The notes under the pieces: generated by a model
Told to the model about the DNA's origin: nothing
The model's database searches: none
Seen by the model: the letters and a program-made list of their open reading frames with translations, nothing else
NCBI GenBank assembly: GCA_020057555.1
Contig: JAGVFR010000028.1
Coordinates: 12,444 to 76,443, forward strand
Direction: 5' to 3'
From: a bacterium
GTDB taxonomy: Bacteria; Patescibacteriota; Patescibacteriia; UBA9934; GWF2-40-263
DNA length: 64,000 nt
Program-made: the position numbers and the translations under genes
Part shown: piece after piece, positions 3,293 through 58,477 of the stretch
Numbering within the stretch: position 1 is the first letter of the stretch
Layout: each line of letters begins with the position of its first letter

Positions 3293-3889
3293 CTAGCTTA
3301 TCACCTTATCAATCAAACCGTACTTAACCGCATCTTCTGGATCTAGGAAGTAATCGCGCTCTGTATCAGCCGCGACCTTCGTGATTTTCTGCCTTGTATG
3401 TTTTGAAAGAATTTGATTAATGCGATCCTTAATCTTCAAAATCCGTTCAGCATGAATCTTAATATCAGTTGCCTGACCTTGAACTCCACCAAGAACTTGG
3501 TGAATCATCACTTCAGAGTTTGGAAGCGCAAAGCGCTTCCCTTTTTCTCCTGCGGCAAGCAACACAGCCGCCATTGAAGCGGCTAGCCCAACACAAATAG
3601 TTGAAACATTTGGTTTGACATATTGCATCGCATCGTAGATTGCAAGCCCGGCAGTAACAGAACCACCAGGTGAATTTACATACAGTTTGATGTCTTTTGT
3701 TTTATCTTGGCTTTCTAAAAAAAGCATTTGCGCAATCACAAGGTTTGCAACCGTGTCGTCGATTTCTGTTCCAAGAAAAATTATTCTATCTTTGAGCAAA
3801 CGAGAATAGATATCATAAGCCCGCTCACCCATGTGGGTTTTTTCTATGACAGTTGGAATAAGAATTTGGTTTGTTGGGGAGAGTGACAT
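3293..3889 (-). CDS. clpP: ATP-dependent Clp protease proteolytic subunit
   Basis: 198 aa. Motifs seen: [40 protein letters not shown] and the catalytic region [31 protein letters not shown]. Confidence 0.9.
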
Positions 3890-4995: not shown

Positions 4996-7233
4996 ATGCA
5001 TCTCGAACGTCTTGAAATTCAAGGATTCAAAACCTTTGCCAAGAAGACAATTTTAACATTTCTTCCTCCAAAAGAAGGCCATTTTCCTGTTACAGCAATT
5101 GTTGGTCCAAATGGTTCAGGAAAATCAAACAGCGCTGACGCGATTCGTTGGGTTTTGGGAGAACAAAGTTTGAAACTTTTGCGCGGTAAACAATCAGACG
5201 ATGTAATTTTTTCTGGCGCAGAGGGAAAAGCTCGTGCTGGTTTTGCAGAGGTCACACTTCAACTCAACAATGAGGACAAATCAATGCCGATTGAATATGA
5301 AAATGTTGTAATCACACGTCGCCTATATCGCGATGGAACTTCAGAATATCTTCTCAACGAAAGTCATGCAAGACTTATTGATATTCAACTTCTTCTTGCG
5401 CAAGCAAATGTCGGTCAACGATCCTATTCAGTTATCGGGCAAGGAATGGTGGATCATATTTTGGTTTCAACACCGGAAGAACGTAAACAATTTTTTGATG
5501 ACGCAACTGGTGTAAAACAATTTCAGATCAAACGTCATGAAGCAATGTTGAAACTCAAGCACACTCTTGAAAATCTTACTGACGCTGAAATGGTTCTTCA
5601 AGAAATTGAACCACGTTTGCGTTCACTAAAGCGCCAAGCATCTCGTCTTGAAAAACGGGAAGAAGTCGAGACCCAACTTCACGCGCTTGAACAAACTTAC
5701 TATGGAAATCTTTGGTGGCAGATTGTGGATGATATGAACGAGCGCAAGCTCACATTTTCTGAAGTCAATAAAAAAATCAAAACAATAGAAAAAGAATTGG
5801 ACGATCTTGAGAAAAAAATGGTCGTTATTGAAAGATCTGAAACAACAGATGAGGGGCTTCGTGAGCTTCAAAAAAAATACCGCGAAATACAACATAAACG
5901 GGAACAGGCTCGTCACACACAATTTGAAACTGAAAAAGAAATTGAACTTGCAAAAATAAAAGTGCAGTCAAATTGGGCACCACTTCCGCTCATAAAAATC
6001 ATCGAAGGAATCGAGGAAATTAAAAAGAAGCTCACTCTCATGTCATCCCGAGCAAAGTCGAGGGATCTCAATAATTTTGATGAAGTTTTCAAAATTGCTG
6101 ATGAGGCTTTTATATTTTCAAACAAACTGGTTTCACAATTGCAAAGACCAAATGCAACTGACATGAAACCAGATCCAAAGCTTGTTGCAAAACTATCACT
6201 TCTAAAACAAGAAGAGGAGAAATTGAATAAAGAGCTTGTTCGAATTGAAAAAGAAATCGATTCACATGCACAAAAAGAAAAAGAAGCACGAACAGAACTT
6301 ATTGAAACACAACGATCTTTGCGCGCAAAACAACAAGATCTACATCTGCTTGAACAGGAGCGAAACCAATCTGAAATTGAACTCGCTCGTTTGGAAGAAC
6401 GACAGCAAGGTTTGATTCGCGAGATGGACGAGTTTATGAAAGAGAGAGCAGTGAATCTAAGAACAAATCTCCCCCCTACCAGAGGGGGGATAAAGGGGGG
6501 AGGGAGCGAGGAAACTTACCCTGAAATTCAGCGACTTCGTTATAAACTCGAATTGATCGGTGGAATCGATCCTGAAGTCATGAAAGAATATACAGAGATT
6601 CAGGAACGCTTTGATTTTCTAAATACGCACGTGACTGATCTTCGACAAGCAATGCGTTCAACAGAAAAAATCATCAAAGAACTGGACGAAAAAATCGAAC
6701 AACAATCCAAAAAATTATTTGGAGAGATTAACAAAAAATTCCAGCACTATTTCAAAATACTTTTTGGCGGAGGATCATGCGCACTTGTGAAAGTCAGCCA
6801 ATCTGTCATCCCAGAAGTGGAATTATCCAATGAGCCTGTCGAAGGGGTAATGAGTCAGATAAACCAGTCCGAAGGTGTTGATATTCAAGCAACTCCGCCT
6901 GGAAAACGTTTGAAGGCATTGAATCTCTTGTCTGGTGGAGAACGTGCACTTACTTCGATCGCGCTTCTTTCCGCAATCATGGATGTAAACCCTTCCCCGT
7001 TTGTTGTTTTGGATGAAGTTGATGCCGCGCTTGATGAAGCAAACACAATTCGATTTGCCGCAATCTTGGATGAGCTTTCACAAAAAAGTCAGTTCATAAT
7101 CATCACACATAATCGCGCGACAATGGAAAAAGCTGATGTACTGTATGGAGTAACAATGGGCGATGACGGAATTTCAAATTTGCTAAGTGTTCATTTGGAA
7201 GATATTGCAAAAAATGGTTCTGCGAGGAGATGA
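4996..7233 (+). CDS. smc: Chromosome segregation protein SMC, short form (~745 aa from the M at 4996; the ORF begins at 4942)
   Basis: N-terminal Walker A LERLEIQGFKTF...IVGPNGSGKSN. C-terminal signature LSGGERALTSIALLSAIMDVNPSPFVVLDEVDAALDE...IIITHN. The middle is coiled-coil-like with many E/K/R residues. Confidence 0.85.
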   Translation: MHLERLEIQGFKTFAKKTILTFLPPKEGHFPVTAIVGPNGSGKSNSADAIRWVLGEQSLKLLRGKQSDDVIFSGAEGKARAGFAEVTLQLNNEDKSMPIEYENVVITRRLYRDGTSEYLLNESHARLIDIQLLLAQANVGQRSYSVIGQGMVDHILVSTPEERKQFFDDATGVKQFQIKRHEAMLKLKHTLENLTDAEMVLQEIEPRLRSLKRQASRLEKREEVETQLHALEQTYYGNLWWQIVDDMNERKLTFSEVNKKIKTIEKELDDLEKKMVVIERSETTDEGLRELQKKYREIQHKREQARHTQFETEKEIELAKIKVQSNWAPLPLIKIIEGIEEIKKKLTLMSSRAKSRDLNNFDEVFKIADEAFIFSNKLVSQLQRPNATDMKPDPKLVAKLSLLKQEEEKLNKELVRIEKEIDSHAQKEKEARTELIETQRSLRAKQQDLHLLEQERNQSEIELARLEERQQGLIREMDEFMKERAVNLRTNLPPTRGGIKGGGSEETYPEIQRLRYKLELIGGIDPEVMKEYTEIQERFDFLNTHVTDLRQAMRSTEKIIKELDEKIEQQSKKLFGEINKKFQHYFKILFGGGSCALVKVSQSVIPEVELSNEPVEGVMSQINQSEGVDIQATPPGKRLKALNLLSGGERALTSIALLSAIMDVNPSPFVVLDEVDAALDEANTIRFAAILDELSQKSQFIIITHNRATMEKADVLYGVTMGDDGISNLLSVHLEDIAKNGSARR

Positions 7234-7257: not shown

Positions 7258-7307
7258 TAAATTATTGCCTGAACCTGTCGAAGGCCATAATTTACTTCTG
7301 TTCAGGT
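7258..7307 (+). repeat. Family-1 intergenic hairpin element (AATTATTGCCTGARCCTGTCGAAGGCC...YTCAGG)
   Basis: aattattgcctgaacctgtcgaaggccataatttacttctgttcagg. The stem CCTGAAC/GTTCAGG covaries with CCTGAGC/GCTCAGG in the copy at 44598. Confidence 0.6.
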
Positions 7308-12574: not shown

Positions 12575-12649
<75 letters not shown>

Positions 12650-12655
12650 AAATAT

Positions 12656-12684
12656 ATTGCCTGAGCCTGTCGAAGGCTGCAGGG
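12656..12684 (+). repeat. Family-1 intergenic element, short form
   Basis: attgcctgagcctgtcgaaggctgcaggg. Confidence 0.5.
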
Positions 12685-44597: not shown

Positions 44598-44665
44598 CCC
44601 TGAGCGGAGGCAATCATGGCCTTCGACAGGCTCAGGCAATAATTGCCGAAGTCGAAGGGTTCAGG
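44598..44665 (-). repeat. Family-1 intergenic element plus an adjacent partial GTCGAAGG hairpin
   Basis: The reverse complement is aattattgcctgagcctgtcgaaggccatgattgcctccgctcaggg. The stem is CCTGAGC/GCTCAGG. Confidence 0.6.
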
Positions 44666-44702: not shown

Positions 44703-44781
44703 GTTTGAACGGTTGTGCTGTGTCGAAGGGAACAGCGGCGATAGTCCGATGGCCCGGAGACATAGCACAACCGTTCAAACT
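44703..44781 (+). ncRNA. Family-2 structured RNA motif, copy A. A conserved 42-nt core lies inside a long hairpin with a covarying closing stem.
   Basis: gtttgaacggttgtgctgtGTCGAAGGGAACAGCGGCGATAGTCCGATGGCCCGGAGACATagcacaaccgttcaaac. Confidence 0.5.
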
Positions 44782-48109: not shown

Positions 48110-49135
48110 ATGGCCAAACAAATTTCAAAAGACGTTGAAACAGACGCTAAATCACGCGCGGCATTTGATGCAATCTCGCAAATCAAACAAAGATTTGGAG
48201 AAGGATCAATCATGCGCCTAGGTGAGGCAAAAACCATGCAAGTTGATGCTATAACAACAGGATGTTTATCGCTTGACCTTGCGCTTGGTGTTATGGGAGT
48301 TCCACGCGGACGAATTATCGAAATTTACGGACCTGAATCATCTGGAAAAACAACGCTAGCTCAACACATTGTCGCTGAAGTTCAAAAAACTGGCGGGCTT
48401 GCGGCGTATGTTGATGCAGAACATGCGCTTGACCCAGAGTACGCACAAAAAATTGGCGTGAACATTGACGAACTTTTTATATCCCAACCAGATAATGGAG
48501 AACAAGCTCTTGAGATTGTTGAAACACTTGTTCGTTCAAACGCAGTTGATGTGGTTGTAATTGACTCTGTCGCGGCGCTTACACCAAAAGCAGAAATCGA
48601 AGGTGAAATGGGCGACTCGCACATGGGACTTCAAGCACGCTTGATGAGCCAAGCGCTTCGTAAGCTTGCCGCAATTGTTAGTAAATCAAAAACAACTGTT
48701 ATTTTCATTAACCAAATCAGAATGAAGATTGGAGTCGTGTTTGGAAATCCAGAAACAACCCCCGGTGGAAACGCACTCAAATTTTATTCTTCTATACGAA
48801 TAGAGATTCGACGTAGCGCGCAAATAAAACAAGCGGAGGCAATTATCGGAAATAGAACAAAAGTTAAAATTGTAAAAAACAAGGTCGCTCCGCCTTTCCG
48901 CACATGCGAATTCGACATTATGTACAACGAAGGTATTTCAATTTCCGGCGACCTTATAGATGTTGGAACCCAAATGGAAGTTATCAAAAAAAGTGGAAAC
49001 AACTACTATTTCAATGAAGAAAAACTTGGTCTTGGCAGAGAAAACGCGAAACTTACTCTTCGACAAAGTCCTGAACTGATGAAAAATATCCGCGAAGAAA
49101 TTTTGAAAGTTCTTGCATTAGTACCGGAAGTGTGA
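48110..49135 (+). CDS. recA: Recombinase RecA
   Basis: [18 protein letters not shown] and the full conserved core. Confidence 0.95.
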
Positions 49136-49157
49136 AAAAGCCGTTAGCCTCTAGCCT

Positions 49158-49182
49158 TTAGCATTAAAAATGCTTTTTTCCT
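49158..49182 (+). terminator. recA intrinsic terminator
   Basis: agcattaaaaatgcttttttcc. Confidence 0.65.
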
Positions 49183-49201
49183 AACGGCTAACAGCTAATG
49201 G

Positions 49202-49765
49202 CTAGTTAACTCGTTCTGTATATTCTCCAGTATCTGTGTTTATCAATACATGATCGCCTTGTGTGATAAACGATGGAACTCTCACTTTCAAACCATTATC
49301 AAGTTCTGCTTCTTTCAGCACGTTTCCTGATGCTGTATCACCTTTTACAGCAGGTTCAGTATATACCACAAAATATTCAACTTTTTGTGGAAGAGTGACG
49401 CTAAGCGCTTGTCCTTCGTGCATAACTACATTGGCTTCTAAACCTTCTTTCAAATAAGGAATACTATCTTCCATATCTGCTTTTGCTATCGAAACTTGCT
49501 CGTACGTCGTGTTGTCCATGAATGTATATAAATTTCCATCATTATAGAGATACTGCATTTTTTTGTATTGAACATCCTCAAATGTAAGAGACTCGGCAGA
49601 TTTAAAGTTTGTCTCCTGAACCTTTCCGGTTTTAATGTTCTTCATTTTTGTTCTAACAAAAGAACTCCCCTTTCCTGGGCTCACTCTTTGAAAATATGTG
49701 ACCAACCATAGTTCACCATTTATATTAACAACTGTGCCTTTTTTGATATCGTTTGGGGAGGACAT
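49202..49765 (-). CDS. efp: Elongation factor P
   Basis: The VSPGKGSSFVRTKMKN loop carries the modifiable Lys. Confidence 0.9.
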   Translation of the reverse strand: MSSPNDIKKGTVVNINGELWLVTYFQRVSPGKGSSFVRTKMKNIKTGKVQETNFKSAESLTFEDVQYKKMQYLYNDGNLYTFMDNTTYEQVSIAKADMEDSIPYLKEGLEANVVMHEGQALSVTLPQKVEYFVVYTEPAVKGDTASGNVLKEAELDNGLKVRVPSFITQGDHVLINTDTGEYTERVN

Positions 49766-52137: not shown

Positions 52138-53283
52138 ATGTGTGATATGACTTTTTTCATTCTCGGTTCACATCCAGATATATCTATCGCGGAAATCAAA
52201 GCAATCGTTGGAGAACGACCTGTGTTTGGTACATCCAAAAACGTTTTACTACTTGAGGATGTAGATGAAAACTTGGGTGAACTGCAAGAACGACTAGCTG
52301 GAACAATCAAAATCGGACGAATCATTGGCGAGATGGATATTTGGAACACAACCGAAGTGTCCGCACTCATCGCAAGTGTTGTTTCAGAAGCCGCTGGAAA
52401 AAACAAAATCGAATTTGGTTTGAGTGATTATGGAATTAAGCAAGATCTCTCGACAATCGGAAAAGAAATAAAGAAACAAGTGAAACAAACCGGCCGGCCT
52501 GTTCGATATGTTTCAAGTCGTGAACCACAGCTCTCTTCAGTAATCGTAAAAGAAAATCATTTGCTGGAATCTGGAGGTGAATTTGTGTTTTTGGTAAGCG
52601 CTGAAAAAATTCTCATCGGACAAACAGAAACTGTACAAGATTACAAAGCATGGTCAAAACGAGATTATGGTCGTCCAGAACGAGATGCAAAATCAGGAAT
52701 GCTCCCACCAAAACTAGCGCGCATGATGATAAATCTTTCCGGAATTGATCCAAAAAAAGTGACTTTGCTTGATCCGTTTGTTGGATCAGGGACGATTCTA
52801 ATGGAAGCGGCTCTACTTGGATGTAAAAAATTGATTGGCTCGGACATTTCAGAAAAAGCAATTCATGATTCAAAAAGAAACTGGAATTGGCTTGTTCAAA
52901 ATTTCGAACTGCCTGATACTTCAATTTCCTTACACATAAGTCCAGCGCAAAAAATAGATGAACTCGTAAAAGAAGAAGTAAATGTTGTAGTGACAGAAAC
53001 GTTTCTCGGCAAACCAAAAACAAAACCACTTTCAGAAACAGGATTCAATCAAACAAAAAAAGAACTAATGGAAATTTACGAACCATCTTTTTTAACGATC
53101 AAAAAACTTCTCAAAAAAGGTGGTGTGATGGTCATTGCAGTTCCAGCATTCAAAGTTGGAAACGAATATAAGCGACTCAATCTGGAATCTTTTTTCAAAA
53201 AAATCGGCTTCACTGTTTCTCAAACATTTCTCTATCACCGCGAAAACCAAATCGTAGCGCGAGAAATTTTTGTGCTCACTTAA
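52138..53283 (+). CDS. Putative THUMP-like RNA methyltransferase of the DPF-GSGT class. N2-guanine (Trm11/RlmL-like) is the likeliest specificity.
   Basis: Motif I LLDPFVGSGTILMEAALLG. An N-terminal THUMP-like region. Confidence 0.55.
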   Translation: MCDMTFFILGSHPDISIAEIKAIVGERPVFGTSKNVLLLEDVDENLGELQERLAGTIKIGRIIGEMDIWNTTEVSALIASVVSEAAGKNKIEFGLSDYGIKQDLSTIGKEIKKQVKQTGRPVRYVSSREPQLSSVIVKENHLLESGGEFVFLVSAEKILIGQTETVQDYKAWSKRDYGRPERDAKSGMLPPKLARMMINLSGIDPKKVTLLDPFVGSGTILMEAALLGCKKLIGSDISEKAIHDSKRNWNWLVQNFELPDTSISLHISPAQKIDELVKEEVNVVVTETFLGKPKTKPLSETGFNQTKKELMEIYEPSFLTIKKLLKKGGVMVIAVPAFKVGNEYKRLNLESFFKKIGFTVSQTFLYHRENQIVAREIFVLT

Positions 53284-54652
53284 AATCTTCGACTCTCCTG
53301 ATAAGTTCGTAAGCTTCGTTAATGTCTTGCATTTTTCTCTCCGATTCTGGTTTTTTATTTCTATCTGGATGATATTTTGCAACTAACTGACGATGTGCCT
53401 CTTTTATTTTTTCCTTTGACGCGCCTCTTTCAACTCCGATCAAATTCCATGCCCAATCAACTCTAGTTCTATCAACTTCAAAACGGTCGTCATCTTCTTC
53501 AACTGTTTCACCAGAGATAACTCGGTATATTTTTTTCAAAAGTTTTTCTAATTTTCCGATCATTTGACTGTAATCGATTCCAAGTTTTCTTTCTTTCATG
53601 TCTGACAATTGTCGACTAACTCGCTCAATTATTTCTACATCAATCTTTTCTCCATCTTTAACTCTTTGAAACAAATCTCTCAATTCCGCTTCAAACGCAA
53701 ACAACTCACGCGGTGCTTCGCTTTTTTCTTTTAGATATTCAACATATTCAAAAAGTGATTTTGCTCTTTCTTCACAGGATTTTCTAATTGATTCATTTAA
53801 CATCCTGCTGGCGATTTCTTTAAACGAATGTGCTTTTGCCAACATTAAATCAAACTTCAGGCGATTTCGTTTTTCTGAATTTTCATTTCCAAAAGTTCGT
53901 ACAGTTTCATTTGGTCTAGCAAAGCTATCATAATCTTCTCTGCTAAACATCTCTTTTTGTAACTCTTCCTCGATTCTTTCAAAAGTGAAAAGTGTTAGTT
54001 CACTCCGATAGCGTTCAAGTTTTTCATGAAGTCGGTCAAGTTCACTCAAAAAATCAATTTGCTCTTTTTCAGAAATCTTGAAATGCCCTAAAACCGAACG
54101 AGCTTGTACAAAATAAGAAATTACTTCGTCAGAATCCAGTTTTCGCCCATATGATTTTTCAAGCGGTGAATTTAAAAAACCAAAAAGATTTATTCTTGAT
54201 TCTATGAATGGAACGTATTGCTTGTAAACCTTTTGTTCGACTCTCAAAATTCTTGCGTCTAATTTTTTTCTTAACTCTGAATCTTTCACTGTCCTACGGA
54301 AATCTACTTGCAAATACGCAAGACGATTCCAAATATTTTCTGGATCAATTGCGTTAAATTTTCTTTCATCGCCGTCAAAATCAAAGATGCTTGGACCTGC
54401 AAGTTCAAGTTCAATTTCAGTAAGTTCATCAATCGCATGAGATTCCATGCTTTGCTCTTCCGCAAGATCTTTCTTTGTTGGAGAAAAATCCTCTGAATCA
54501 GGATCAAGATGTCTTTCTAATTCATACCTTGGGACTTTTGGCATATTGATTTGAAAATTTTCGATAATAACCATCGTTTTGTGCCGTAGAGACAGACGGG
54601 CCGACTTTTTCTTGGCCTTATACATAGAATAGAGGCAGAAAAAGCGTCCCAT
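53276..54652 (-). CDS. Protein with a C-terminal J domain preceded by a large helical region
   Basis: A C-terminal HPD J domain IKEAHRQLVAKYHPDRNKKPESERKMQDINEAYELI. The true start may be internal. Confidence 0.6.
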   Translation of the reverse strand: MGRFFCLYSMYKAKKKSARLSLRHKTMVIIENFQINMPKVPRYELERHLDPDSEDFSPTKKDLAEEQSMESHAIDELTEIELELAGPSIFDFDGDERKFNAIDPENIWNRLAYLQVDFRRTVKDSELRKKLDARILRVEQKVYKQYVPFIESRINLFGFLNSPLEKSYGRKLDSDEVISYFVQARSVLGHFKISEKEQIDFLSELDRLHEKLERYRSELTLFTFERIEEELQKEMFSREDYDSFARPNETVRTFGNENSEKRNRLKFDLMLAKAHSFKEIASRMLNESIRKSCEERAKSLFEYVEYLKEKSEAPRELFAFEAELRDLFQRVKDGEKIDVEIIERVSRQLSDMKERKLGIDYSQMIGKLEKLLKKIYRVISGETVEEDDDRFEVDRTRVDWAWNLIGVERGASKEKIKEAHRQLVAKYHPDRNKKPESERKMQDINEAYELIRRVEDFK

Positions 54653-54725
54653 AACTGTCTCTTGTGTATCTTATGTAGTTAACTGATTAGCTTGAGGCTG
54701 AAGAGGAAGGTTTTTAAGATTGTAA

Positions 54726-54800
54726 GGAGCAGTTTGCATCATGTCGCAGGGAACAACGGCGAGGAGTCCGTTGGCCCGGAGACATGGTGCAAACTGCTCC
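54726..54800 (+). ncRNA. Family-2 structured RNA motif, copy B
   Basis: ggagcagtttgcatcatGTCGCAGGGAACAACGGCGAGGAGTCCGTTGGCCCGGAGACATggtgcaaactgctcc. Confidence 0.5.
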
Positions 54801-54871
54801 GACACTTGTCTTCCTAAACGACTTCGGCGGCGGTCAAGAACAGAGGAACCGAACGATCTGTCAATTCATGT

Positions 54872-55927
54872 TCAAACTCCAACTCTGAAATGACATGTAT
54901 CTCCATCTTGCATCACATAATCTTTTCCTTCAACTCGTAACTTCCCTGCTTCACGCGCTCCAGCTTCGCCTAAATCAACAAAATCTTTCCAAAAAATTAC
55001 TTCAGCACGGATAAATGCTTTTTCAAAATCAGTGTGAATTGTTCCAGCGGCTTGCGGCGCTTTTGTACCGCGCGTAATTGTCCATGCTCGCGATTCTTTT
55101 TCGCCTGATGTAAAAAAAGTGATCAGATTCAAAAGCTCGTAACATTTTGTGATAAGACGATCAAGACCGGATTGCTCAAGTCCAAGTTCTTTTAAAAAAA
55201 CGGCTTGCTCATTTTCTGGCATTTCAACAATTTCGGATTCGAGTTTTATTGAGAGAGAAATGGAAGAAAGGGAGGCAATGGAAGAAAGGGTTGAATTTTC
55301 TGAAACATTCATCACGTACAAAATCGGTTTGAGAGTGAGCAAATTCAAAGACTTGGCAATTTTCAATTCATCCTCGTTTAAAACGACTGTGTTTGCCATT
55401 TTGCCTTGAGAAAGAACTTCAAAAATACGAGCGATAACGGATTCCTCCAGTTCAAGCTCTTTTGTTTTGCCAGATTTCATTTTTCCACGAACAGTATCTA
55501 GACGTTTTTCTGTTGCAGTCAAATCCGCCATTGCAAGTTCTGTTTCGATTGTCTCGATATCACGCTTAGGATCAACAGAACCTTCCACATGATGAACGTT
55601 AGAGTCTTCAAAAGCTCGAACAACGTGCACGATCATGTCCACTTCGCGGATGTTTGTTAAAAATTTATTGCCTAGTCCTTCTCCTTTATGAGCACCCTTT
55701 ACCAAACCTGCGATGTCAACAAATTCAATCGCGGTTGGAATTGTTTTTTGTGATATACTCACTCCTGTAAGTTCGTGAAGCCGAAAGTCAGGAACTTCAA
55801 CAACACCGATATTTGGTTCAATTGTGCAAAACGGAAAATTTGAACAATCGACTTGCTTTTTTGTGAGCGTCTTAAACAAAGTTGATTTCCCGACGTTTGG
55901 AAGTCCAACAATTCCTACTTGTAGCAT
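54872..55927 (-). CDS. ychF: Ribosome-binding ATPase YchF (Obg family)
   Basis: [14 protein letters not shown], a C-terminal TGS domain. Confidence 0.85.
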
Positions 55928-56119
55928 ACGAGCCGAGTATACCTAGTGAGTAGAATCTTGTGAAGAGAAAAACAATATGTTATCCTCGTGCCAGCATGTC
56001 GCTGACACGACACTCGACAAACCTCAAAAAGCATCCTGTAGGATAAATCTATCAGTTAAAAACTGGGACAAATCCCGCACAACAACGGCATATCGCCGTC
56101 AGGTGCGAAGGAGGTTTCA

Positions 56120-56266
56120 ATGTTCGAGCATGTCGTGTCCCACGAAGCTGGCCCTGGTGGAGCTCGCGCACCTGAATGGCCTGATCCGATCTTTCTCCCA
56201 GGGGTCTTCAATGTTTCCCGCAAACCCATTGGGCGCCGAAGGCGTAAGGTTCGGCTCTGGCACTAG
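56120..56266 (+). CDS. Small ORF (48 aa, Arg-rich C-terminus) with a strong ribosome-binding site and its own terminator. Hypothetical.
   Basis: AAGGAGG, 6 nt, then ATG. It encodes MFEHVVSHEAGPGGARAPEWPDPIFLPGVFNVSRKPIGRRRRKVRLWH. The terminator GACTCGAGAtcttCTCGAGTC plus T7 lies at 56307-56336. Confidence 0.35.
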   Translation: MFEHVVSHEAGPGGARAPEWPDPIFLPGVFNVSRKPIGRRRRKVRLWH

Positions 56267-56344
56267 ATGTCACTCCACAACTCAACACGATAAGCGTCAT
56301 GCCACTGACTCGAGATCTTCTCGAGTCACTTTTTTTACGATTGA

Positions 56345-56372
56345 AAACAAAAAAACACGGGGTGAACCGTGT
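56345..56372 (-). terminator. Intrinsic terminator for the minus-strand lipoprotein gene
   Basis: aaaaaaacacggggtgaaccgtgt on the plus strand; the U-run is on the minus strand. Confidence 0.55.
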
Positions 56373-56389
56373 CAGTTACTATGTGTGAC

Positions 56390-57394
56390 TTAGGATATTA
56401 CGCCTAGTGCTCCTCCTGTAAAGAGCGGAGTATCTTCATTCGAAGTTTTTTCCGTGGAATCCTTCGCCGGAACCGCCTTTGCAGGGGGTGAATGAACAGG
56501 AATCGGTATGATCGCCGGCGATGCTTCACCTCCACCTCCAGCTCCGCCAAAGTTGGAGATGATGATCGTGTTGTGGCCGTTTGTGTTGGCCGTTGACACG
56601 ATCTCTTGAAGAGCTTGCATGTTATAAACACGCCAGCGAGATCCGGACTGATCTTCATTCAAGAAATCCGTTAGAGTCCTGATCGCATCAACACGCTTGT
56701 CAGCGGCTTGCTTTGCTGAAAGCGCGTTAACGACAGTCTCATCTGGCTTCATGTTTGATACGACGGCGTTCACAAGCCGCAGTGGAACATTCTTCTGCGT
56801 AAGAATCTGCGACACGGCTCTCTCAACCTTTCGGATGAAACCGTCTTCGCTGGCATCGGCAAACGCTTTGAACGCTGAATCGAAATCTGTGTACTGTGTA
56901 CAAAGCTGTCGGATTAGTCCACGAACCTGCAATCGCGCTTGTTCGTCGTAGACTGAAGTCAAACTCACTCGAAGCACGCGTGGTTCGCCTTGCACCAGCT
57001 CTGGATTCCCGAGAAGAAACACTCGTTCTAGTTCAGCTTTGCCTGCTGGCTTTTCGTAGTCAGGAAGCGCGAGAAGCAGTCGCACGTCAAGCGTCATTGG
57101 CGCACCATTGGAAGTAAGACAGCGATGATCTTCCTTGTCTTCCATCCCAGTAGCGCCCAAAAACTGTTCCTTGACTTCGATACCGCTACGTTGGATGAGA
57201 ACGAGCCGACTGCCAAAACCAGTCATATTCTCGTCACCTATATCTACCATGCCCGGCGTGTAGATTTTCTTCTCGTATCCCGTTGGCGTGAGTATCATGC
57301 CAATGTCATTTGGAGGAACGTTCACGTACTTACGACACGAAGTCACGGAAAGAACAAAGATGAAAAGAACGAACACGAAGATGAACTTACGCAT
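56390..57394 (-). CDS. Lipoprotein, possibly SPFH/band-7-like. GC-rich gene with a Gly-rich C-terminal region.
   Basis: Signal plus Cys (FVLSVTSC). About 52% GC. The family assignment is tentative. Confidence 0.45.
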   Translation of the reverse strand: MRKFIFVFVLFIFVLSVTSCRKYVNVPPNDIGMILTPTGYEKKIYTPGMVDIGDENMTGFGSRLVLIQRSGIEVKEQFLGATGMEDKEDHRCLTSNGAPMTLDVRLLLALPDYEKPAGKAELERVFLLGNPELVQGEPRVLRVSLTSVYDEQARLQVRGLIRQLCTQYTDFDSAFKAFADASEDGFIRKVERAVSQILTQKNVPLRLVNAVVSNMKPDETVVNALSAKQAADKRVDAIRTLTDFLNEDQSGSRWRVYNMQALQEIVSTANTNGHNTIIISNFGGAGGGGEASPAIIPIPVHSPPAKAVPAKDSTEKTSNEDTPLFTGGALGVIS

Positions 57395-57397
57395 TGA

Positions 57398-57715
57398 TTA
57401 CTCCTTTATCGTTTCCATCTGTTCGTACACCCCTGACTTGTCAACGTCCGACCGTGGCATGCGATTAGACGATGCAAACATCGACATTTCGCAAACAAGA
57501 CCGACCAGAGAAAGAACAACGATGATGATCATGGTGATAGCAGACCACTTTCGCGCGGTCTCTTTCTCGGAATCGTTCAGAATATGTGTGACCTTGAGAA
57601 ATAGACGGAAGACGATCAAGACGAAGATAGAGATGATTATCAGGAATACGACTCCGGTAATCTCTCCTTGAAAGGCTCGAAAGAACCCTTCCCAATGGAA
57701 CCCCTGTTCTGACAT
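57398..57715 (-). CDS. Small membrane protein (2 TM), NfeD-like partner candidate. The start is likely the internal MSEQGFHWEG.
   Basis: The hydrophobic segments VVFLIIISIFVLIVF and ITMIIIVVLSLVGLV sit immediately upstream of the lipoprotein gene. Confidence 0.4.
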   Translation of the reverse strand: MSEQGFHWEGFFRAFQGEITGVVFLIIISIFVLIVFRLFLKVTHILNDSEKETARKWSAITMIIIVVLSLVGLVCEMSMFASSNRMPRSDVDKSGVYEQMETIKE

Positions 57716-57807
57716 GAAACTTTTCCTCCCATTTCCACATCGGCCGTCTATCAGCCGAGAAAGGATAATAAAACAAAAGACACTTCTTGTCAATATTAAA
57801 GTGTTTA

Positions 57808-58386
57808 TTATGCCGATATCTCAAGAATTGATTCTAAAGCGCTTGAAAGCTCAACGATTCCATTGCTTCCTGAAAAATGTCCTTTTGCCTGTTCGATGAT
57901 GATTTTTGATCCAAGCTTATTTATAAAATCCTCCTGATTATCAAGAGGAACGTAAGGATCATCATCAGAAAAAATCGCGACACTTTTTTTCAAATGGTTT
58001 TCAACTTTTTCAAGATCAAGTGGAGCGTTCAACCATTCATCAACAACACTTCGTGTAATTTCATCATTTTCGATATTTGTAAGTCTTTTGAAAAAACCAG
58101 CAACAAAAACCGCGCCACCTACTTTTACATCTTCAGATAGTAATTCAAGATACCGCGCGATTGTCTGACATCCCATACTGTGACCGACAAAATATGTTTG
58201 TTCATCTGCGATTCCAACGGCTTCTTTCAAGACTGGCACACAGTTATTAATTCTCGGTTCTTCTGATTTTGGAAGTTGTGGTACAGAAACAAAGAAACCT
58301 CGACTCTCTAATTCTTTTTTGAGCCAAGGAAACCATCCTCCTTCTGGATTTCCATCCCAACCGTGAACAATAAAAATTCTTTTCAT
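57808..58386 (-). CDS. Alpha/beta hydrolase (YdeN/RBBP9-like serine esterase)
   Basis: IFIVHGWDGNPEGGWFPWL...YFVGHSMGC. Confidence 0.7.
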   Translation of the reverse strand: MKRIFIVHGWDGNPEGGWFPWLKKELESRGFFVSVPQLPKSEEPRINNCVPVLKEAVGIADEQTYFVGHSMGCQTIARYLELLSEDVKVGGAVFVAGFFKRLTNIENDEITRSVVDEWLNAPLDLEKVENHLKKSVAIFSDDDPYVPLDNQEDFINKLGSKIIIEQAKGHFSGSNGIVELSSALESILEISA

Positions 58387-58401
58387 ATTTCAAATTCGGA
58401 A

Positions 58402-58477
58402 TGGTGGACCGTGTGGGGATCGAACCCGCGACCTCTTCCATGCCATGGAAGCGCTCTACCAGCTGAGCTAACGGCCC
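58402..58477 (-). tRNA. tRNA-Ala (GGC) with G3:U70. There is one A-C mismatch in the T stem.
   Basis: GGGCCGTTAGCTCAGCTGGTAGAGCGCTTCCATGGCATGGAAGAGGTCGCGGGTTCGATCCCCACACGGTCCACCA. Confidence 0.7.

Follow-up and report, generated by a model that had tools for sequence, protein, structure and literature searches.

A hairpin between ychF and a J-domain gene as a probable copy of a dispersed palindromic repeat family in Candidatus Uhrbacteria

What is the strongly folding hairpin that occupies the spacer between ychF and a J-domain gene in this genome, and does it belong to its neighbouring genes or to something else? A sequence-only reading of the locus had placed a structured motif here, regarded it as the second copy of its kind, and proposed that it acts either as a cis-regulatory 5' leader of the J-domain gene or as an independent small RNA on the plus strand. 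In the 64,000-nt stretch of DNA analysed here (the window), its position between ychF (54872-55927, minus strand) and the DnaJ-domain ORF (53276-54652, minus strand) was confirmed, and the motif was borne out at exactly 54726-54800, with 20-bp arms, a strong fold and a comparable arm pair in 0 of 100 shuffles. The host belongs to Uhrbacteria, ultra-small bacteria of groundwater: a catalogued protein matches its YchF in full, and among the named matches the best are to Uhrbacteria. Our preferred reading, to which we assign a probability of about 0.7, is that the hairpin belongs to a palindromic (fold-back) DNA repeat family dispersed in many copies through Candidatus Uhrbacteria and related Parcubacteria, in kind resembling the Rickettsia palindromic elements (RPEs), REP/BIME repeats and MITEs of other bacteria. 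The window copy lies in the middle of a composite insertion of ~286 nt, which takes up the ychF-dnaJ spacer (Table 1).

The window hairpin and a census of its family

Folding of a 131-nt stretch around the element gave -65.4 kcal/mol on the plus strand (z = -8.05) and -56.0 kcal/mol on the minus strand, and the single imperfect pair in its P1 stem reads as a U-G wobble on the plus strand and as A.C, a mismatch, on the minus strand. When the whole window was searched with filters off, a covariance model trained on 31 copies detected exactly two, which scored 92.6 and 82.3 bits on the plus strand compared to 35.6 and 29.7 on the minus strand. The expectation of a further family member in the window thus held: the sibling (window copy 1) has the same 44-nt apical part, TGTCGnAGGGAACAnCGGCGAn(n)AGTCCGnTGGCCCGGAGACAT, on a wholly different and fully paired stem.

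Comparison with known RNA families returned no assignment. A scan of the window at the Rfam gathering thresholds recovered rRNA and tRNAs only, and E-value scans of both hairpin loci gave generic hairpin matches alone, far under threshold (Lambda_thermo scored 14.4 bits where 50 is required, and miRNA precursors 22-26 bits where 79-88 are). Membership of a known family was rejected on this lack of an Rfam match, and the hammerhead and twister core motifs were missing by eye. Neither window copy is followed on either strand by the T-run of an intrinsic terminator, and a search for promoters and terminators at the window copy gave nothing above chance. Two promoter-like sequences at chance level were noted there, TTGAGG-17-TAAGAT at 54692-54720 on the plus strand (8/12 by eye), whose start would fall at the hairpin base, and GCGACA-17-TACAAT at 54747-54719 on the minus strand (9/12), directed to the J-domain gene.

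An exact-pattern scan of one genome per species yielded 26 stretches from seven MAGs, including three Candidatus Uhrbacteria, one Parcubacteria and two labelled Gammaproteobacteria; JACRJU01 contributed 13 copies or more and JACPHT01 seven or more. Metagenome scanning added at least 80 loci with the motif, groundwater metagenomes being among the sources. The covariance model matched 35 times within the genome loci and at least 103 times within the metagenome loci, and at least ~120 distinct copies were recognized in total from Candidatus Uhrbacteria/Parcubacteria genomes and groundwater metagenomes; in viral contigs the core pattern was not found. The presence of the family in Gammaproteobacteria was rejected. 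The MAGs titled 'uncultured Gammaproteobacteria' that carry the element (CAYHDY01 and CAYJVQ01; loci L013, L015, L018 and L024) are syntenic with Uhrbacteria loci at 70-77% nucleotide identity, which makes their label doubtful and, from the sequence comparison, probably wrong. A full-text literature search found no description linking MITE, REP or palindromic elements with CPR bacteria, and the hairpin family of Uhrbacteria is previously undescribed.

Table 1. Coordinates of the hairpin element, its parts, its surroundings and related features (window positions unless a locus is named)
Feature	Position	Strand	Details
ychF	54872..55927	-	Element lies 72 nt beyond the stop codon, antisense to ychF
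J-domain gene, probable true extent	53276..54544	-	Start by the closest relative's protein; ORF extends to 54652
Hairpin element (window copy)	54726..54800	+	Arm pairing, folding, covariance model
P1 arms	54726-54745 / 54781-54800		20 bp
3x3 internal loop	54746-54748 / 54778-54780		GCA / GGA
P2	54749-54751 / 54775-54777		GGG/CCC
Bulges	54752-54753; 54774		AA; G
P3	54754-54759 / 54768-54773		CAACGG/CCGTTG
Apical loop	54760-54767		8 nt, CGAGGAGT
Composite repeat unit	54573..54858	+	~286 nt, hairpin at centre; recurs elsewhere with the same internal junctions
Left module, second palindrome	54573..54720	+	AGAGACAG...CTGTCTCT
Right outer inverted repeat	54838..54858	+	GAACAGAGGAACCGAACGATC
Sibling copy (window copy 1)	44703..44780	+	22-bp stem, 7-nt-loop subtype; covariance model
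40-nt insert loci	L034, L037, L041, L049, L065, L066, L077, L093, L100, L101 (x3), L102, L110		e.g. L101:10426-10546

Strand asymmetry and genomic context of the copies

Across the family the element measures 75-80 nt, with a near-invariant apical core of ~35-45 nt, and has a GC content of 0.58 compared to 0.42 for the genome. The P1 stem comprises 18-22 bp of variable sequence, of which the innermost pairs are nearly always UGUC/GACA, and is followed inwards by a 3x3 internal loop (GNA/GRA), the P2 stem (GGG/CCC), the AA and G bulges, a 6-bp P3 stem with exchange between A-U and G-C at two positions, and an apical loop that reads CGAnnAGU or is a 7-nt variant. Among the 31 copies of the model, 95.4% of cells were paired, compared to 35-40% with slid partners, both sides had changed in 21 of 29 pairs, and the observed covariation was reached by no shuffle. 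The unpaired core bases were invariant in these 31 copies, although the search pattern itself demanded many of them.

Pairing at 18 inner stem positions of 99 ungapped copies (1598 Watson-Crick, 129 G.U, 25 A.C and 30 other) revealed a marked difference between the strands. Since transitions in a stem are equally likely to yield either type of mismatch, the excess of G.U indicates that it is the plus-strand fold that has been preserved, and the plus strand was the more stable in 92 of the 99 copies (mean 7.4 kcal/mol). On both counts, the constrained fold is that of the plus strand, on which the sequence-only reading had placed its possible small RNA. The asymmetry was present in every gene-orientation class, with G.U:A.C ratios on the core's plus strand of 30:8 in sense copies, 24:2 in antisense copies, and 12:0 and 9:2 in copies within ORFs; the constraint therefore follows the core and not host transcription. 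Only the strand reading GGGAAC...GGCCC is maintained as a good hairpin, and a function in host mRNAs is ruled out by this asymmetry as the selected property. This leaves either DNA in single-stranded form or a plus-strand RNA with transcription of its own.

The genes adjoining the copies encode aminoacyl-tRNA synthetases, ribosomal proteins, ATP synthase, ribonucleotide reductase and others, and are mutually unrelated; among 53 immediate neighbours, no transposase occurred in the 25 commonest of 70 Pfam families. Between co-directional genes, 27 copies lie in sense and 27 in antisense orientation, with 20 further copies between convergent and seven between divergent genes, and the median distance past the upstream stop codon is 53 nt. 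Flanks are unrelated outside sub-families and contain no conserved promoter or terminator at a fixed distance from the copies. A- and T-tracts flank some copies, and most are without a T-tract. These observations speak against the proposed leader of the J-domain gene, as at least ~120 copies lie by unrelated genes, in balanced orientation and in some cases inside coding sequence. The comparison of synteny in related genomes, which had been suggested as a check on that proposal, also went against it: the ychF-dnaJ spacer of the closest relative is 33 nt long and holds no element, and the copy at this position in a second relative (L043) is flipped. That the window copy regulates any particular gene is very unlikely.

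The J-domain ORF is itself altered by the repeat. The homologous protein of the closest relative begins MPKVPRYELER, and the matching ATG at window position 54544 is, judged by this alignment, most likely the true start, the extension at 54545-54652 (the first ~36 codons) being repeat sequence. The pseudo-peptide of this extension is also encoded beside copies in L005 and L023.

Several copies lie within genes. In tgt, antisense in-frame copies occupy the same loop at L046, L048, L072, L074 and L087, where the proteins share 68-75% amino-acid identity and the insertion encodes ..SPGHRTVAAVP.., and the covariance model identified sense copies at the same position in L113 and L114. We examined 120 Tgt homologues (P0121-P0240), 70 of which were scorable at the loop between RWAKR and FGIVQGG. 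This loop has 10-27 residues in 39 of the 70, typically 10-13; seven of the 70 fit a strict antisense-core pattern, three more are close variants by eye, and ..SEGTTATVRRPGD.., present in four, is the same core translated in the other orientation. Elsewhere in Uhrbacteria the loop carries unrelated long inserts (e.g. ..EAISADERKGIASSPAAPRND.. and ..GAPELRATLSSSLGPDKAGLSLR..), and the site looks permissive, a hot spot that other repeat families have apparently used too. An HD-domain gene in L067 contains a clean 96-nt in-frame insert that is missing from the 89%-identical L092, and a Wzy_C (O-antigen ligase) gene holds one copy in a third frame, in-gene copies thus being read in three reading frames. 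In the tgt copies the plus-strand hairpin is perfect (G.U 11, A.C 0, by reading) and the arms share no sequence. That these hairpins are intact despite unrelated arms hints at constraint in situ or at a homogenising mechanism, and is not predicted by simple decay of dead selfish DNA.

Turnover, mosaic structure and core inversion

In the closest genome, JACPHT (L027; YchF 90% identical, about 87% nucleotide identity), the ychF-dnaJ spacer measures 33 nt, compared to 327 nt in the window, and the length of the ~286-nt composite corresponds to this surplus DNA. The element is missing from the spacer in three further relatives too. In L043, a metagenome contig of 90% nucleotide identity, the spacer contains a different copy in the opposite orientation, with a different stem, the 7-nt-loop subtype and no left module. 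In JACRJU (L011), too, ychF is followed by an element, oriented relative to the gene as in the window, whose stem resembles JACRJU paralogues and not the window copy. Conserved synteny after ychF was rejected as an explanation, given four closer or equally close relatives without the element and the paralogue-like stem, and from its sequence the JACRJU element is read as an independent insertion.

Differences of the same kind were found at other sites. Window copy 1 is missing at the orthologous site of L109 and L033 (88% identical), and these relatives are filled where the window is empty, at site A (equivalent to window 49120-49203) and at site B (the rpsF-methyltransferase spacer). Genome alignments at this distance indicate that copies are gained and lost between genomes that are 87-90% identical. 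No clear target-site duplication was detected: no consistent direct repeat occurred at five filled/empty junctions or outside the 12 units with outer repeats described below. Where three relatives have the element, an ordinary hairpin with a T-run behind it (GCATTAAAAATGCTTTTTT within a longer palindrome) stands at 49134-49208 of the window.

The composite of which the window copy forms the centre recurs at L101 (~3340-3700), L049 and L041, with related forms in L005 and L023, in the order left module, junction AAGATTGTAA, hairpin, right spacer and GAACAGAGGAACCGAACGATC. Its left module is ~85-90% identical to L005:~1640-1790 and to L023, and starts with a degenerate outer inverted repeat, ATCGTTTTGTGCC. 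A ~195-nt unit bounded by 21-bp outer inverted repeats (GATCGTTCGGATCCTCTGTTC / GAACAGAGGATCCGAACGATC) encloses the hairpin in 12 of 120 copies, and the middle positions of these repeats covary too across the 12 units. The window copy has kept the right outer repeat and has a degenerate left one, and most copies of the family are without the outer pair. A further sequence, TTCAGGATGACAAGG, precedes the hairpin in the JACRJU copies and in window copy 1. With several module combinations around the hairpin, the repeats form BIME-like mosaics. An additional GC-rich palindromic insert of ~44 nt was noted in the left module of L101 and L049.

The apical core was found in both orientations between the same arms. 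At site A, L109 and L033 share arms and flanks with L110, and the core is reverse-complemented between them (L109:6215-6295 and L033:495-575 versus L110:4404-4525); the corresponding pairs in tgt are L113:2017-2096 and L114:2020-2099 versus L046:4667-4740. At the protein level, the Tgt peptides ..LSPGRRTGAVVPSD.. and ..LSEGTTAPVRRPGD.. lie within identical flanks, the core flip preserving the reading frame, and such flips were seen in the Tgt pairs P0145/P0152 and P0122/P0132. These alignments indicate that the ~45-nt apical core can invert between its arms.

Palindromes are also nested within the element. An identical 40-nt GC-rich palindrome, CCGTCGCCGGCCGAAGCCGGCTATGGCCGGCGTAGGCCGG, lies right after the core GGCCCGG in 14 copies with differing stems, all from one metagenome (Ga0265296). 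Its constant position points to site-specific insertion or to core-to-core gene conversion. In L036:6000-6260 (minus strand), two nested inserts were observed, the 40-nt palindrome and CTGCCTGCCGGCAGGCAGG after AGTCC. The idea that the core is a mini-element entering existing palindromes was rejected, one 'empty' TGTC..GACA palindrome having been found in 907 kb (L103:6467-6484). This 20-bp palindrome has a 10-nt loop instead of the core and a normal copy ~100 nt away, and perhaps arose by loss of the core.

Competing explanations and known repeats

If the hairpins are dispersed fold-back DNA repeats, their active form would be the folded plus strand, most likely as single-stranded DNA during replication or transposition, and the constant, irregular apical core would probably be the recognition site of a putative trans-acting enzyme. 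The arms would need only to pair, their complementarity being maintained through selection for hairpin or transposition competence and/or through template switching, a process established in E. coli that corrects quasi-palindromes. Core flips could arise by arm-to-arm switching or recombination. Any effects on ychF or the J-domain gene, such as an antisense-oriented hairpin in the intercistronic RNA or an outward promoter, would be by-products. The selfish aspect of this reading is weakened by the failure to find a mobilising enzyme beside the copies or a clear target-site duplication at the junctions examined, and by the perfect tgt hairpins with unrelated arms. IS200/IS605 TnpA was dropped as a candidate mobiliser after tblastn with approximate IS200/IS608 TnpA queries, a weak test, returned no TnpA-like ORF from 907 kb of loci.

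A functional RNA family read from the plus strand would account for the strand asymmetry just as well: each copy would produce its own ~80-nt hairpin RNA, and transposition would be secondary. The apical domain of such an RNA would bind a protein, and the ~20-bp stem would serve as a generic duplex handle, such as a substrate for an RNase III-type enzyme. A fold kept on the core's plus strand whatever the host transcription, a near-invariant unpaired core with covarying stems, model scores of 92.6 bits on the plus strand against 35.6 on the minus strand, intact hairpins at long-standing tgt sites, and a weak promoter-like sequence (54692-54720, 8/12) that would start transcription at the hairpin base are all consistent with it. 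However, the copies have unrelated flanks outside sub-families and no promoter or terminator conserved at a fixed distance, several lie in frame within genes and in three reading frames, fourteen persist with the core split by the 40-nt insert, the core flips relative to its flanks, and the stems match nothing else in the window, their matches in viral contigs being at chance level. Of the independent plus-strand RNA first suggested for this locus, the constraint on the plus-strand fold has stood, whereas the missing fixed-distance signals, the in-frame copies and the split cores tell against the rest, and from these sequence features we regard such an RNA family as unlikely. A role of the stems as phage guides was rejected: a stem 18-mer had two matches in viral contigs, about the number estimated by chance, neither of them a hairpin, and the core was missing there. 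A broader proposal, rather unlikely on the same kind of evidence, is that the plus-strand hairpin would be a functional single-stranded module, either an RNA or a single-stranded DNA site, with a dedicated partner protein on its invariant apical core, kept foldable in situ even within the tgt coding sequence and with an invertible core; if this were true, the family would be a nucleic-acid element of a new class, one restricted to CPR bacteria.

The remaining explanations fare worse. A terminator or mRNA-stabilising hairpin of benefit to the host, the function classically proposed for REP sequences, would fit the preference for gene 3' ends (20 convergent against seven divergent spacers, median 53 nt after the stop codon), the A- and T-tracts beside some copies, and the position of the site A element in the place of the window's ordinary hairpin and T-run. 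Yet most copies, both window copies included, have no T-tract, the maintained strand follows the core even in antisense copies (G.U:A.C 24:2), and some copies lie within coding sequences, which leaves this function rather improbable. Integron attC sites, or other folded single-strand recombinase sites, share with the element a conserved structure with variable sequence and a single-strand-specific fold, and an inverting core would suit such a recombination site. Copies are nevertheless single and scattered among housekeeping genes, without cassette arrays or a nearby integrase, and their conserved part is apical, unlike the R'/R'' core sites that attC conserves at the stem base; we consider a recombination site a very doubtful assignment. 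Hardly credible is a cis-regulatory role in the local operon, with the element working within the minus-strand mRNA as the J-domain 5' leader or in the ychF 3' UTR. Its location between two co-directional genes and the element downstream of ychF in JACRJU favour it, but the minus-strand mRNA would contain the weaker, antisense form, the spacers of the closest relative and of three others have no element, L043 has another copy in the other orientation, the JACRJU copy resembles its own paralogues and not the window copy, and across the family the neighbours are unrelated with a 27:27 orientation.

Among described repeats, the closest kinds are RPEs, REP/BIME repeats and MITEs, whose general features the dispersed hairpin family shares (small, palindromic, multi-copy, non-coding and able to insert in frame), without a clear case of those that define each named family (REP size and tag, a RAYT gene, target-site duplication, an autonomous IS). 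RPEs are small palindromic repeats that occupy spacers and lie in frame in unrelated genes, with no known transposase (PMC10969869). As in RPEs, tens of palindromic copies occur in a reduced genome, in spacers and as in-frame insertions that add a peptide to housekeeping proteins (here in tgt at seven loci and in the HD-domain and O-antigen ligase genes), and neither element has a known transposase. The host belongs to Patescibacteria/CPR and not to Rickettsia; with Uhrbacteria as the host, common descent, and with it a relation in sequence, is unlikely. The Uhrbacteria unit is also shorter (75-80 nt versus ~100-150 bp), conserves only its apical ~35-45 nt on arms that diverge fully yet remain complementary, and, set beside RPEs, shows core inversion and strand-asymmetric wobble pairs. 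REPs are 20-40 bp long with a GTAG or CGTC tag at one end (PMC3733652). REP/BIME repeats and the Uhrbacteria elements are alike extragenic palindromes that are concentrated at gene 3' ends and form mosaics with other modules, and in both the single-strand hairpin is the presumed recognised form. Unlike REPs, the Uhrbacteria element is 75-80 nt long with a variable stem base and no conserved terminal tag, and no RAYT (Y1 HUH) gene was found by the repeats in the loci examined (907 kb).

MITEs such as Correia, ERIC, BOX/RUP/SPRITE and QMITE elements are likewise under 500 bp, non-coding and multi-copy, with stable stem-loops, features shared by the hairpin of 75-80 nt, its composites of ~195-290 nt and the at least ~120 copies. 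At most in part, the likeness may extend to terminal inverted repeats: a 21-bp pair bounds 12 of 120 copies, and the hairpin arms are inverted repeats themselves. The family showed no clear target-site duplication and no related autonomous IS at the junctions and loci examined, and whereas MITEs are typically AT-rich, the element is GC-richer than its genome (0.58 versus 0.42). Pneumococcal repeats are reported to nest in one another (PMC10969869), as the Uhrbacteria elements also do. The GC clusters and double-hairpin elements of mitochondria in fungi and sponges, short palindromes rich in GC, enter genomes that are richer in AT, both in spacers and in coding regions, and nest. The Uhrbacteria 40-nt insert behaves similarly, by analogy only, these elements being organellar and unrelated in sequence. 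Repetitive hairpin-forming elements of sponge mitochondria are described in PMC2800124.

CPR/Patescibacteria genomes are small and usually called streamlined, yet those of Uhrbacteria hold tens of nested palindromic repeats, which turn over between 87-90% identical genomes, reshape spacers and add peptides to essential enzymes (Tgt). The window locus itself is an ordinary repeat copy, and the family is of moderate interest as a clean natural system for the recognition, copying, correction and inversion of hairpin DNA, with useful features in its constant core and free complementary arms, its one-strand fold, core flipping and the fixed entry point of a second palindrome. In practical terms, the repeats extend ORFs spuriously, as they do at the N-terminus of the window's J-domain ORF, can mislead searches for riboswitches and small RNAs in Uhrbacteria genomes, and are likely to break metagenome assemblies.

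Other features of the window were noted beside the hairpin family. A GC-rich region at ~56.0-57.3 kb (50-56% GC compared to 33-43% around it), with a lipoprotein-like ORF inside, had been raised as possibly connected to the hairpin; the motif model gave no match there and no relation was found. From ychF to the TPR gene (~55930-58400) the window spans ~2.5 kb, compared to a spacer of ~560 nt in JACPHT. The extra DNA contains the lipoprotein-like ORF (56390-57394, no Pfam family), a serine-hydrolase gene (57808-58386) and a tRNA (58405-58477), and looks like an insertion unrelated to the hairpin family. A different repeat, TATTGCCTGAGCCTGTCGAAGGC, has three or four copies in the window, at 7260-7292 (plus), 12655-12677 (plus), 44612-44644 (minus) and 6824-6846 (plus), one of them immediately upstream of the tRNA gene at 12578-12649 (minus strand) and another ~60 nt before window copy 1. 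It is probably the repeat that had earlier been called family 1. The 9-mer GTCGNAGGG, common to the hairpin core, occurs six times in the window against an expectation of 0.65.
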